63,329 nucleotides of DNA from an uncultured Clostridia bacterium (GTDB lineage Bacteria; Bacillota; Clostridia; TANB77; CAG-508), in the NCBI GenBank assembly GCA_944388735.1, contig CALXJX010000005.1, positions 1 to 63,329 on the forward strand, in the 5' to 3' direction. Under the pieces are notes generated by a model. That model was not told the origin of the DNA, did no database searches, and worked only from the letters and a program-made list of their open reading frames with translations. The position numbers were made by a program, and so were the translations under genes. The number at the start of each line of letters is the position of its first letter. The first letter of the stretch is position 1. Shown here one piece after another: positions 53,510 to 56,486 of the stretch.

Positions 53510-54133
53510 TTATTGCTTATAATAAGAAATTACTCTCTTTTTAGTTTTATTAGATGTTGGAACATTATCTGTTGTAGTATTCTCACTTTCTGTTGGATTT
53601 TCACTTAAATCTTCTTGATAATATTCTCCTAATTCTTCTCTAAAACCATTCGTATTCCTATTTATTATATCATATAAAGGGCCATCTGGCAAGCTTATAT
53701 TAGTAAATTCATTTTCATATCCACTCTGTTTAGTTCCATAAAGTATATACTCTACAAACCTTTGTCTTTGTGCATCATTTTCTAGAGTCTCTTTCTGCAA
53801 ATCAATATAATTAATACTTTCTTTTGTGCTATTGCTCAAAGTTTTTTCATAAATTGTCATTGGCGTTTTTGCTTCATTTTCATAAAAGAATATTTTATAG
53901 TTTTCTTTATATGCTCTCATGATTGCAGGAACCATAGTTTCTGCCGAAACAATTCTTGCTGTTTGTCCATTTTGATCATCTACATAAGTATAATCGTATT
54001 CCCTATCTGTATAGTCTAATATCGTCTGGGCTGTTACTCTTACATTAGAAAATGATACTATTGCTGTTGCTAATGTTACTGCAAAGATTAGTACAAAAGC
54101 TGCCATTTTTAATGCTTCTGCTGCGTTTTCCAT
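53510..54133 (-). CDS. MENA-type pilin-like protein 4
   Basis: 207 aa. N-terminus MENAAEALKMAAFVLIFAVTLATAIVSF. Confidence 0.4.
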   Translation of the reverse strand: MENAAEALKMAAFVLIFAVTLATAIVSFSNVRVTAQTILDYTDREYDYTYVDDQNGQTARIVSAETMVPAIMRAYKENYKIFFYENEAKTPMTIYEKTLSNSTKESINYIDLQKETLENDAQRQRFVEYILYGTKQSGYENEFTNISLPDGPLYDIINRNTNGFREELGEYYQEDLSENPTESENTTTDNVPTSNKTKKRVISYYKQ

Positions 54134-54157
54134 TGTAAATCACCCTATCTTTTTAAT

Positions 54158-54607
54158 TTATGTAGCTGAACCAGCTCCTGGATCGCTAATTGTTACTGTT
54201 GTAACATAACCTGTACTAGTATCTGTTGTACATACTACTTTATAAGTTTTTCCAGTTTGAGCCCTTCCAGTATTTGCAGTTGAAGTAGGTGCAGTAGTTG
54301 AAGTAGGTTTTGTTCCGTTCCAATTTGAAGAAGTTACATTTATTTGTACTTGTTTACTAGTGTCATCTTGATTTGCCACATTATTTTGTACAATAGTTGA
54401 TAGTAAAGAGTTAACTTCACTTCCTCTTACATTTTCACCTTCATGACTTGTAAATTTTTCATTAAATTGAATAATTTCTACATCTGATATACTGCTATCT
54501 CTTGTAACCTCTGATGCTTGTTGAAAGATAAAAATTCCTAAAGTAATAATTAATATTGCTAATAATATAGCTCCTGCTATAATTAATGCTTTTGATGCAT
54601 TCTCCAT
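54158..54607 (-). CDS. MENA-type pilin-like protein 3 (candidate major subunit)
   Basis: 149 aa. MENASKALIIAGAILLAILIITLGIFIF, AGGAGG RBS, and a Thr/Ser-rich C-terminal half. Confidence 0.45.
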   Translation of the reverse strand: MENASKALIIAGAILLAILIITLGIFIFQQASEVTRDSSISDVEIIQFNEKFTSHEGENVRGSEVNSLLSTIVQNNVANQDDTSKQVQINVTSSNWNGTKPTSTTAPTSTANTGRAQTGKTYKVVCTTDTSTGYVTTVTISDPGAGSAT

Positions 54608-54683
54608 AATAAATTCCTCCTATTTATTTTAAATTTTTTTCTATTTTAATTGCTATAAGACATAGCAAACATTAATAACAAAT

Positions 54684-55118
54684 TTATTCTGATATTTGTT
54701 CAAATAACAGATATTTAACTTTATTTGTTTTATGATGATATTCTACATTTGTACATTTAAATTTTATCTGTCCATAATATTGAACAAATTTTTCAATTCC
54801 ATTTGAATATAGAATTTCGATTGGATGTGTTTTATCATCATCTGTAAATTTTATATCCATATTAATAGAATTTTCATTATTTGCAATATAAACACCATCA
54901 TTGCCTTTTTGAACATCATTTCTTATATTATTATTTATTATTCTATTTATTAGAGTCGCTATCTCTGTTCCTTGAATCTCTTGATTATAATAACTATCAT
55001 ATTGTGAATTTTCTTTTTTAGCTGAATAATAATTATTTTTAGTTACAACATAAGCATAAGAAACTCCAGAAATAATCACTGCTAATAATATAGCAAAACA
55101 AATTACTATCTTTTTCAT
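54684..55118 (-). CDS. Signal-anchored paralog of the MENA proteins
   Basis: 144 aa. N-terminus MKKIVICFAILLAVIISGVS, yet it shares the internal GTEIATLINRIINNN motif with the MENA proteins. Confidence 0.35.
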   Translation of the reverse strand: MKKIVICFAILLAVIISGVSYAYVVTKNNYYSAKKENSQYDSYYNQEIQGTEIATLINRIINNNIRNDVQKGNDGVYIANNENSINMDIKFTDDDKTHPIEILYSNGIEKFVQYYGQIKFKCTNVEYHHKTNKVKYLLFEQISE

Positions 55119-55215
55119 AAAAATCCTTACTTATATTAAAATTTAATATTATTATATTTTTAACAGGTTTGTAAAATTGACTATCTGTACATTTAATAAG
55201 TTTATATCTAATACT

Positions 55216-55692
55216 TTATCTGTCTGTAAAATTAACCAAATATACAAGTTCAGTGTTAGGATTAATCTCAACTTGACAATCATATTTCTTCAAACTTAAA
55301 TTTTCATCTGAAGTATTAGCAATACCATTTAAATCATTAACTATTAACTGATCCAATTCTTCCTTGCTTTTTGTTTCTTGCCTTCTTCCATTAAGATTAA
55401 CTGTAATATAATATGAATATTCATCTAAAGCATCTGCCTGTGTCAAGCCATAGCTCTGATTATTGTCTTTTGCTAAATTAATTACTGTTATAATATCATA
55501 AATAGTAACATCTGTTCCAATATATTTAGTAAATTGTGTATTAAATTGATTATTTAGTGCCTGTTGTCTTTCCCCTTGTACTCTTCCCATGGATGATGAA
55601 AAATTTGAATACAAGAATACACCTAATGATAAAACCAACATTCCAACTAAAACTGCTGCTGCCATTGTTAAAGCTTTTGCTGCATTCTCCAT
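55216..55692 (-). CDS. MENA-type pilin-like protein 2
   Basis: 158 aa. MENAAKALTMAAAVLVGMLVLSLGVFLY, then FNTQFTKY..IYDIITVINLAKDNN. Confidence 0.4.
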   Translation of the reverse strand: MENAAKALTMAAAVLVGMLVLSLGVFLYSNFSSSMGRVQGERQQALNNQFNTQFTKYIGTDVTIYDIITVINLAKDNNQSYGLTQADALDEYSYYITVNLNGRRQETKSKEELDQLIVNDLNGIANTSDENLSLKKYDCQVEINPNTELVYLVNFTDR

Positions 55693-55781
55693 ATTGAATA
55701 TTGTCCTTTCTATAAAGATTTGTTCTTTGATATTTTTTATTAATATTCGTAATAAATTTAAGTTTTTGATAAATACTTTAT

Positions 55782-56486
55782 TTACTCTAAATTTCTACTA
55801 CTATCAAATTCGAAATTCATTTCTACAATTCTACCTGTTTGTTGATTATAAGCAGTTCCTGTACAATTAAAATAAGCTCTTTTTAGCTGTGTATATTCAT
55901 AATACACAAGTGCATCTTCTTTAATTGATTCATAACCACCATAATTACTTAAATCTTTTGGCAATATTTTTTGAGTTTCTTCTTGTCCATTCGAATTATC
56001 CATGACTTTACTTATATTTGAAGTTAGATTAGATATATAATTAACATTTCCGACATTATATTTATTTTCTATTTGTGTCACCTTATCTGTTAATCTATTT
56101 TTTAAATTATCTTGATTATAGCTTCTTTGTAAAAGTTTTGGATATTTTGTTCTATCATTATCGTATGAAAATTTCTCTCTTATCAAATCATCATTATCGG
56201 CAATTTTTACTGAAATTTTCATTTTTTCATATCCGTCTTGGTCAGTAACAGTATTATAATTTATAACTCTATTTACTAATGAAATTAGGTCACTACCCCT
56301 TATTCCATTTCTAATGTATGTTTCAAATTGATTATTAAATTTGCTCACATCTGCTTCTAGTACTCCTTGGCTTTTAGAAGTTTGATATTCTGTCAAATTA
56401 TTAAACATAAGGAGCAATGCACCAATAATTAATAAAGAAATTAAAAGTCCACCTGCTATTAACAAAGCTTTTGATGCATTTTCCAT
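55782..56486 (-). CDS. MENA-type pilin-like protein 1
   Basis: 234 aa. MENASKALLIAGGLLISLLIIGALLLMF, then FNNQFETY..RGSDLISLVNRVINYN. Confidence 0.4.
   Translation of the reverse strand: MENASKALLIAGGLLISLLIIGALLLMFNNLTEYQTSKSQGVLEADVSKFNNQFETYIRNGIRGSDLISLVNRVINYNTVTDQDGYEKMKISVKIADNDDLIREKFSYDNDRTKYPKLLQRSYNQDNLKNRLTDKVTQIENKYNVGNVNYISNLTSNISKVMDNSNGQEETQKILPKDLSNYGGYESIKEDALVYYEYTQLKRAYFNCTGTAYNQQTGRIVEMNFEFDSSRNLE

Follow-up and report, generated by a model that had tools for sequence, protein, structure and literature searches.

Pilin-like proteins with a common MENA N-terminus in a Tad-like operon of uncultured TANB77 Clostridia and in related plasmid modules of cultured Bacillota

The stretch of DNA analysed here, called the window throughout, spans 63,329 nucleotides of an uncultured Clostridia bacterium of the TANB77 lineage (NCBI GenBank assembly GCA_944388735.1, contig CALXJX010000005.1, positions 1 to 63,329) and harbors a 12-gene minus-strand operon from 63309 to 51198, in which four genes downstream of a CpaF-like ATPase gene encode pilin-like proteins that begin almost identically with the residues MENA (hereafter the MENA proteins), as shown in Table 1. 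A 10–14-gene cluster was described by Kim et al. (2024, Nat Commun 15:10726) in 122/129 species of the uncultured order TANB77 (PMC11680825), and the protein numbers 927–938 used below are those of that cluster. All four MENA proteins exhibit a polar segment of 7 residues followed by hydrophobic residues 8–28, which make up a 21-residue helix. Each of the four open reading frames (ORFs) begins at the earliest start codon that follows an in-frame stop, which limits the polar segment to seven residues at most, and the first eight codons of the paralogs vary synonymously (GAA/GAG, AAT/AAC, GCT/GCA, TTG/TTA), indicating selection on the protein level. The preliminary description of this DNA had quoted the four near-identical N-termini, which the ORF translations reproduce exactly, and had linked three of the proteins and their 144-aa neighbor through a downstream motif (FNxxF ... 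G[ST][ED][VLI]..L); the motif is seen in the alignment and is backed by profile-profile homology, and the proposal of diversified paralogs in a Tad-like locus agrees with the head domain that three MENA proteins have in common with the 144-aa protein. The further claim that the 149-aa gene has the strongest ribosome-binding site does not hold, as the AAGGAGG of the 172-aa gene is at least equal to its AGGAGG; the 234-aa gene has GGAGG, and sites of the GGAGG type precede most of the genes.

Table 1. Genes of the operon and other features of the window; TM, transmembrane; protein numbers are those of the TANB77 cluster of Kim et al.
Feature	Positions	Strand	Remarks
CpaB-like protein, 363 aa	62218..63309	minus	First operon gene; N-terminal TM helix and SAF domain; protein 927
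232-aa protein	61501..62199	minus	TadZ-like according to Kim et al. (PMC11680825); conserved in 80/84 loci; protein 928
286-aa ParA/MinD-type (CpaE/TadZ-like) protein	60639..61499	minus	Protein 929
CpaF/TadA-type secretion ATPase, 656 aa	58650..60620	minus	N-terminal TM helix and lineage-specific N-domain of ~220 aa
691-aa polytopic membrane protein	56559..58634	minus	8 TM segments; candidate fused TadB/TadC platform
234-aa MENASKAL protein	55782..56486	minus	Minor pilin-like candidate; variable insert, orthologs 136–319 aa
158-aa MENAAKAL protein	55216..55692	minus	Minor pilin-like candidate
144-aa protein	54684..55118	minus	Sec-type signal/anchor (MKK...); head domain in common with MENA proteins; protein 934 ('signal peptide')
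149-aa MENASKAL protein	54158..54607	minus	Major-subunit candidate; Thr/Ser-rich variable region
207-aa MENAAEAL protein	53510..54133	minus	N-terminus as in other MENA proteins, D/E at position 6, K at position 9; ectodomain unrelated
172-aa N-terminally anchored protein	52965..53483	minus	Consensus M[GS]D[TS]LITIIAI...FPLM..DRTDD; also in plasmid modules; protein 937
560-aa N-terminally anchored protein	51198..52880	minus	MKIQ.LAVIFIIIILP... start; ortholog of 'pilin 938'
spoIVB	49687..50948	minus	Peptidase_S55 and PDZ domains; three reading frames
Obg-family GTPase ORF	41418..42350	minus	Starts within the GTP1_OBG domain
TraX-family protein, 242 aa	5503..6231	minus	Polytopic; PF05857, E 2.8e-43

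Related loci were collected in a scan with an ATPase alignment, with one genome per species, in which at least 406 matching stretches were confirmed; the best 80 loci were used and, together with four metagenomic ones, constitute the 84 related loci considered below. Nearly all of the best 80 loci come from uncultured gut Clostridia, represented by metagenome-assembled genomes or CAG-type genomes (one is labelled only Bacillota), and their carriers include Clostridium sp. CAG:575, CAG:780 and CAG:389 as well as Candidatus Merdicola. The gene order is essentially fixed across the 84 loci. Differential conservation was observed for the parts of the operon, with median identities to the window proteins (~80 species) of 83% for the ATPase and 73% for the platform protein, as against 33–43% for the MENA proteins, a pattern expected of exposed subunits beside conserved machinery, and the MENA genes are real, fast-evolving genes for pilin-like subunits. 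All 301 MENA-type N-termini in the 84 loci (301/301) are located on the same strand as the platform gene and at most 6.5 kb downstream of it. A metagenome-wide scan with a DNA pattern returned 120 stretches, 110 with other operon genes, 7 that were short contigs with MENA genes only, and 3 with neither. The recurrence of the MENA N-terminus is thus not a matter of chance, given that all 301 lie behind the platform gene and 110/120 metagenomic matches have operon context, and the motif is tied to the ATPase operon and not widespread elsewhere. The 149-aa class, earlier put forward as the major subunit, is a plausible candidate for that role, being short, nearly invariant over residues 1–30 and tandemly duplicated in 17/67 loci.

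A separate arrangement was observed on the metagenome contig JAEEGL013811312.1 (2.7 kb; 1042–2470 of locus L134), where two MENA genes of the 149-aa class flank an ORF that bears the head domain behind a different N-terminus, and where the same genes adjoin a gene foreign to the operon; orphan or variant pilin cassettes may therefore exist outside the operon.

The N-terminal signal was derived from 262 unique N-termini starting with MEN (~80 species), in which positions 1–3 are fixed by the way the set was selected and positions from 4 on are informative. Position 4 is A in 254/262; position 5 is S, A, T or V; position 6 is K in 193, D in 30, E in 21, R in 8, N in 7 and Q in 2, and thus charged in 252/262 (96%); position 7 is A in 260/262 (99%); position 8 is L in 252/262 (96%); and A11 and L15 are near-invariant as well. 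In BLAST-labelled sets, assembled with no selection on the N-terminus, ~70–93% of the members of each class begin with MENA, and the 207-aa class also displays MENV, MEDN and MENM starts. In all type IV prepilins the residue at −1, directly before the processing site, must be G, A or S, and only in archaea is a charge at −2 critical, with RA↓LS, DA↓VS and KG↓QV as archaeal examples (PMC4371748; the arrow marks the processing site or, in the proteins described here, the start of the hydrophobic helix). As a pattern, the MENA N-termini follow the archaeal class III rule of a charged residue at −2, G or A at −1 and a hydrophobic residue at +1, and the 207-aa class has D/E at −2, as in Haloferax PilA1-3 (DA↓VS), and Lys at +2. 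The bacterial signature G↓F(T/S)L(I/L)E is absent from the MENA proteins, whose site reads KA↓LIIAG with G or A at +5 and for which Pfam and NCBIfam give no match to an N-methylation motif; the Flp signature G↓xxxxEY is likewise absent from these proteins, which are 149–234 aa long and lack EY. The earlier statements that neither bacterial prepilin signature is present and that the leader is closer to archaeal class III signal peptides are hence both sustained, the latter as a pattern, with a −2/−1 rule that fits 96–99% of the 262 sequences.

The ectodomains were compared through class profiles from 67 loci, with the first 30 residues removed. Those of the 234-, 158-, 144- and 149-aa classes are mutually homologous at 91–99% probability (hhalign profile-profile comparison, E 1e-6 to 5e-18), whereas the 207- and 172-aa ectodomains show no match to these four classes at the same sensitivity, and the 207-aa protein has only the N-terminal module in common with the other MENA proteins. 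As the same head is found behind an ordinary Sec-type signal in the 144-aa paralog, the MENA N-terminus represents a separate functional module. The AlphaFold2 (AF2) model of the 149-aa protein, built on an alignment of 90 sequences, reaches a mean confidence (pLDDT) of 86 and displays a single helix at residues 2–53, a strand, a helix at 62–78 and three further strands, with a drop in confidence at residues 31–40, between the TM helix and the head (pLDDT 57). In this predicted model the secondary-structure elements follow one another as in a type IV pilin, with alpha-1 leading through an alpha-beta loop into a sheet of four strands. The 149-aa protein had no match when its sequence was searched against the PDB; its 6959 homolog clusters include 0 that are named and 0 with a Pfam domain; and Pfam and NCBIfam searches of the seven small proteins gave nothing above threshold, weak matches to SpoIIIAH, MptE and PhrK being rejected as TM or signal-peptide noise.

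Homologous modules were also detected on plasmids. A tblastn search of the ATPase against plasmids returned 33 records with a match over at least 80% of the query (mostly residues 44–625) and identities of 37–61%, and each of the matches listed lies on a megaplasmid of a cultured member of the Bacillota, the hosts being Thermobacillus (T. composti pTHECO01), Cohnella, Paenibacillus (P. polymyxa pPPM1a), Sporosarcina, Alkalihalophilus pseudofirmus OF4 (pBpOF4-01), Cytobacillus, Lysinibacillus sphaericus (pBsph), Clostridium argentinense, C. botulinum, C. beijerinckii and Butyrivibrio proteoclasticus (pCY186/pCY360). In the 11 plasmid loci that were read, the usual order is a SAF protein, proteins of ~230 aa and ~277 aa, the ATPase, a ~680-aa membrane protein, a pilin-like protein of 137–162 aa, a ~125-aa TM protein and counterparts of the 172- and 560-aa proteins. 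The three Clostridium loci lack the ~125-aa gene, and those of C. botulinum and C. beijerinckii are also without the ~230-aa gene and carry a cell-wall hydrolase gene after the pilin-like gene. Apart from the SAF protein and the ATPase the plasmid proteins are annotated as hypothetical, and Pfam adds nothing. Each plasmid module has one MENA-like pilin, compared with four in TANB77, and the plasmid ATPases inspected (T. composti, C. botulinum) are without a TM anchor.

The plasmid pilin-like proteins have the head motif Y[DE]xxx[VI][ST]GS[EQN]V in common, and their N-termini place A before the helix in MSTNASKA↓L, MNNASSA↓L, MDSVTKA↓I, MESPVVKA↓I, MGENARKA↓L, MKESTSTA↓L and MSNAQKA↓L; G in MGENGRKG↓L, MDDNATKG↓L and MGGSLSEG↓L; and K in MDSPVVKK↓I of C. 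argentinense. When the 11 plasmid homologs are taken together with the TANB77 consensus, A or G directly precedes the hydrophobic helix in 11/12 (G in 3). The plasmid leaders comprise 6–8 residues of variable sequence in which E2 is not conserved, and a variable leader in front of a fixed A/G behaves as a cleavage site does, not as a fixed mature N-terminus.

Regarding their surroundings, several plasmid modules continue with an SLH or cell-wall-binding protein, a DUF5704 protein of 1000–1200 aa and a GGDEF protein, and several lie near genes for a coupling protein, a relaxase or cell-wall hydrolases (loci L085–L090 and L093–L097), which suggests a role in mating-pair formation or in adhesion regulated by c-di-GMP. 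A further Tad-like module is found on pHD02 of Paenibacillus sp. IHB B 3084 (NZ_CP013205.1), a 100-kb 'plasmid' record that also carries mutS, mutL, hfq, glnA, lexA, miaA and cotE and looks like a chromosomal fragment, so that the module may be chromosomal in this strain.

The remaining operon genes encode the putative machinery. The 363-aa protein matches Pfam SAF (E 9.4e-5; score 23.3 bits, cut-off 21), and an exact look-up of its sequence returned no record; the 286-aa protein has a weak CbiA/ParA match below the gathering cut-off (E 7.7e-5, 23.1 against 25.4 bits); and the 232-aa protein belongs to no Pfam family. The 656-aa ATPase matches T2SSE (28.4 bits against a gathering threshold of 24.9), and CpaF proteins are its only PDB matches (E 1.9e-10). 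Its alignment covers residues 265–540 only with rhizobial CpaF and residues 44–625 with the Bacillota plasmid homologs; the N-domain of ~220 residues, within residues 1–265, is present in the plasmid homologs inspected, minus the TM helix, and is unmatched in rhizobial CpaF. For the 691-aa protein, which matches no Pfam family and no PDB sequence, a profile search gave 1213 representative relatives, Pfam T2SSF was matched neither by it nor by 41 diverse homologs, and its profile had no PDB match. In hhalign comparisons with small TadB and TadC alignments it produced weak, collinear matches, residues 120–316 to TadB (P 0.009) and residues 495–679 to TadC (P 8e-4), with a TadB-versus-TadC control at 94% probability; the AF2 model of this protein, from an alignment at ≥79% identity, has a pLDDT of 49.6. 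The assignment of its halves to TadB and TadC relies on the Foldseek result of Kim et al. (PMC11680825). In several species (loci L006, L031, L035 and L038–L040) the platform gene is split into ORFs of ~435 and ~255 aa, which could reflect a real fission, comparable to TadB/TadC, or a set of frameshifts. A hidden Flp gene was considered and rejected, as the intergenic gaps of the operon are at most 97 nt.

The flanks of the operon are occupied by other genes. In related loci the gene upstream encodes a Cof-type HAD hydrolase of 290 aa that is unrelated to the operon, and this protein was rejected as a candidate peptidase. The operon is followed by spoIVB, which in the window runs through three reading frames by way of two frameshifts, one of them just before the catalytic GMSGSP region; identical breaks are present in an independent assembly of the same species, and spoIVB is short or split in 20/61 related loci with the pilus operon intact. 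These breaks suggest a decay of sporulation in part of the clade, a systematic assembly error being the alternative. The Obg-family ORF of the window starts in the middle of its domain (profile positions 116–155 on residues 2–41), suggesting another truncation or frameshift in the assembly.

Taken together, these observations are best accounted for, with a probability of roughly 0.55, by a reading in which the MENA proteins constitute the filament-subunit set of a divergent Tad-like machine and have their leader cleaved by an unlinked peptidase. The Tad-like character is argued by a gene order and protein sizes equal to those of the published cluster, by the CpaF-only PDB relatives of the ATPase and by a SAF domain as in CpaB. 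Under this reading, the MENA proteins would insert in the membrane with the N-terminus inside, each presenting a predicted extracytoplasmic alpha/beta head behind its ~21-residue hydrophobic helix, and the CpaF-like ATPase, acting via the 691-aa platform, would extract them and stack them, by way of the hydrophobic helices, into a fiber. The role of major subunit would fall to the 149-aa class, and that of minor or tip subunit to the 234-, 158- and 207-aa classes and to the 172- and 560-aa proteins. Removal of the leader at A7↓L8, by a prepilin-type peptidase whose gene lies in another part of the genome, is slightly favored because of the class III fit, the interchange of A and G at −1 and the variable leaders of the distant homologs.

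The following results weigh against this reading. With respect to the fold and family of the subunits, a Foldseek search of the 149-aa AF2 model against the PDB gave a best E of 1.6 with no pilin among the matches, and no Pfam, NCBIfam or hhalign link of the subunits to Flp, TadE, TadG or DUF4320 was obtained. The canonical set for hhalign comprised these four families and neighboring small proteins from Rhizobium, Azospirillum and Alicyclobacillus loci; the profiles of the 149-, 207-, 172- and 560-aa classes reached at most 2% probability against TadE, TadG and DUF4320, the match to Azospirillum Flp had a probability of 0.4%, and the MENA proteins had no Pfam match at E<0.1. Homology of the platform to T2SSF was likewise not demonstrable here by sequence profiles. 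With respect to the signal, Glu at +5 is absent from the MENA proteins; MENA is invariant over four paralog classes, which is unusual for a discarded leader; position 2 is acidic; and in the homolog from C. argentinense K occupies the position that matches −1. With respect to the enzyme, neither gene calls nor annotations revealed an A24 peptidase in the operon, in the 63-kb window or in the ~80 genome and 11 plasmid loci inspected; the A24 signature GxGDxK was matched by no ORF of the window or the 84 loci; and the polytopic membrane proteins of the window, as identified by Pfam, are TraX, a CDF transporter, a Gate-domain protein, UppP, a TPR protein and a P-type ATPase, with no peptidase among them. 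Homologs of PibD, FlaK or EppA were also not found in the window and the loci, and the whole pHD02 record contains no prepilin peptidase. Canonical Tad loci usually carry tadV, and the Azospirillum locus read for comparison (L100) has a prepilin peptidase gene beside Flp. In MSH pili, on the other hand, the prepilin peptidase is unlinked to the pilus genes (PMC6668835), and by analogy an unlinked peptidase is possible for the MENA proteins.

The polytopic TraX-family protein of the window, located 50 kb from the operon, belongs to the family of the F-pilin N-acetylating enzyme. It was not seen in the plasmid modules and is probably unrelated to the operon, a role as N-terminal modifier of the MENA proteins being conceivable.

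The second explanation, tentative and clearly less probable, is that the MENA proteins are pilins without a leader, which would remain unprocessed, with M1-E2-N3-A4 as the functional start of the helix, E2 in the charge-neutralizing role of Glu5 and no peptidase needed. The lack of a peptidase in any examined locus, the invariance of MENA, which holds for most members of each class even in the sets chosen irrespective of the N-terminus, the acidic position 2 and the K at −1 in one homolog all favor the lack of processing, and so do the AF2 helix that begins at residue 2 and the periodicity of a helical face (A4, A7/L8, A11, L15) that begins within the first four residues. However, outside TANB77 the residues before [K/S/T/E][A/G][L/I] vary in both sequence and number, E2 is not conserved, and every characterized type IV filament subunit is, to our knowledge, processed (PMC4371748).

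An unlikely third explanation is that the proteins do not polymerize and are instead bitopic membrane or wall proteins, forming structural or adhesin parts of an envelope apparatus driven by a Tad-type ATPase that on the plasmids would serve conjugation or secretion. The lack of pilin similarity in Foldseek, the low confidence of the AF2 model between TM helix and head, and the occurrence of the head behind an ordinary Sec signal are all compatible with it, as is the position of plasmid modules beside genes for coupling proteins, relaxases, cell-wall hydrolases and large SLH/DUF5704 proteins on plasmids of which the pBsph-like ones have been shown by experiment to be conjugative (PMC13239906). 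Against this, four to five paralogs with one strictly conserved N-terminal helix and diverging heads form the pattern of major and minor pilins, and the TANB77 operon lies on the chromosome, where no conjugation genes occur within 10 kb of it. Moreover, we know of no substrate of a CpaF-type ATPase with its platform except pilin-like subunits. A sporulation-associated envelope machine analogous to SpoIIIA is very improbable: spoIVB adjoins the operon in 60/84 loci, one locus has an SASP gene upstream and the 158-aa protein has a weak SpoIIIAH match (E 0.019), but this match scores 15 bits against a threshold of 30.6 and lies over the TM region, the operon is intact where spoIVB is broken, and the 8–12 kb flanks of the 11 plasmid loci contain no sporulation genes.

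The gene family and its 'pilin-like' label were already known (PMC11680825). Kim et al. assigned CpaB, TadZ, CpaE and TadA/CpaF, recognized TadC/TadB in the halves of a ~690-aa protein by AlphaFold and Foldseek, and termed 932–938 'pilin-like' from context, predicted promoters and topology; they also reported that the N-terminal quarter of 938 is structurally like TadE/PilV and that recombinant 938 activates dendritic cells via TLR4 (PMC11680825). The pilin-like proteins were proposed in 2024 to be the TANB77 molecules associated with a better response to checkpoint immunotherapy. The text of Kim et al. contains no 'prepilin', MENA motif, processing question, missing peptidase or shared head domain, and the searched literature on TANB77 and pili holds, beyond that paper, only a review. 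As far as the searched literature shows, four elements are new: the N-terminal signal as defined here, with its archaeal-type form; the head domain common to several classes, among them the paralog with the Sec signal; the lack of a linked peptidase in any examined locus; and the homologous modules carried by conjugative megaplasmids of Bacillota that can be cultured, for which no published description as a pilus was found. Exclusivity to TANB77 was claimed for the cluster from a test against gut genomes only (PMC11680825), and the homologous plasmid modules mean that the cluster is not exclusive to this order; TANB77 has a chromosomal version in which the pilin set is expanded and the ATPase is anchored in the membrane.

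The pilin status of the TANB77 proteins has so far come from gene context alone, and the fate of the first seven residues decides both the form of the native antigen and whether the fiber can be reconstituted. If no dedicated peptidase is involved, these would be the first peptidase-independent type IV pilins. Culturable and tractable carriers, such as L. sphaericus, P. polymyxa and A. pseudofirmus OF4, make knockout and microscopy feasible, and a strain cured of pBsph exists (PMC13239906).

Comparison with known systems begins with the type IVa pilins and Com pseudopilins of monoderms, which the MENA proteins resemble in a leader of 5–8 residues, Lys at −2, a helix of ~50 residues and an alpha/beta head, and from which they differ in having Ala instead of Gly at −1, Leu instead of Phe at +1 and no Glu5; PilB/PilC/PilD and ComG machinery is also lacking from the TANB77 operon, and searches by family and by fold gave no match. 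The archaeal class III pilins (Haloferax PilA1-6, Sulfolobus Aap/Ups, Methanococcus Epd) are similar in their short leader ending in a charged residue and Ala/Gly, in a helix that follows straight after the leader with no need of Glu at +5, and in their globular heads; the differences are the bacterial host, the failure to find a PibD/FlaK/EppA homolog in the loci or a sequence or fold match, and the Gln that EppA substrates have at +1, which is absent from the MENA proteins. The Tad/Flp systems (type IVc; Caulobacter, Aggregatibacter, Bifidobacterium) have in common with the operon a CpaF/TadA ATPase, a CpaB-like SAF protein and a TadZ-like ParA upstream, and a platform after the ATPase followed by several pseudopilin-like genes, the upstream order being that of the canonical loci L098 and L100. 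In contrast, the operon is without a 50–80-aa Flp pilin, a TadE/TadG family match and tadV; the platform of the window is a single, putatively fused gene with no detectable T2SSF; the ATPase has an extra N-domain and a TM anchor; and the subunits of the window are 130–250 aa long with a globular head.

Tad systems are thought to derive from archaeal Epd-like pili (PMC6668835), and a Tad-type motor that occurs together with globular pilins of archaeal style and a putatively fused platform, but with no linked peptidase, is relevant to this origin. Tentatively, the TANB77 operon and the plasmid modules may belong to one separate lineage of type IV filaments spread across the Bacillota, a relic of or intermediate between Epd-like and Tad pili, with a CpaF-type motor, archaeal-style features (the fused two-domain platform gene, the globular pilins and the [charged][A/G]↓[L/I] signal without Glu5) and subunits that would be assembled without a dedicated prepilin peptidase or processed by an unrecognized enzyme.

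The closest counterparts of the operon are the plasmid modules of Bacillota, whose core is syntenic with it and whose plasmids are either conjugative or equipped with mating-pair-formation genes, and above all the published TANB77 cluster, which agrees one-for-one with the window operon in order and size (363/232/286/656/691/234/158/144/149/207/172/560 aa in the window and 358/231/280/640/693/165/170/143/146/237/178/621 aa as published) and likewise contains seven N-anchored proteins, of which the third has a signal peptide and the last is of ~600 aa. The hosts are alike as well, being uncultured low-GC gut Clostridia with small genomes, and with no structural difference between the two clusters the window represents another species of the same clade.

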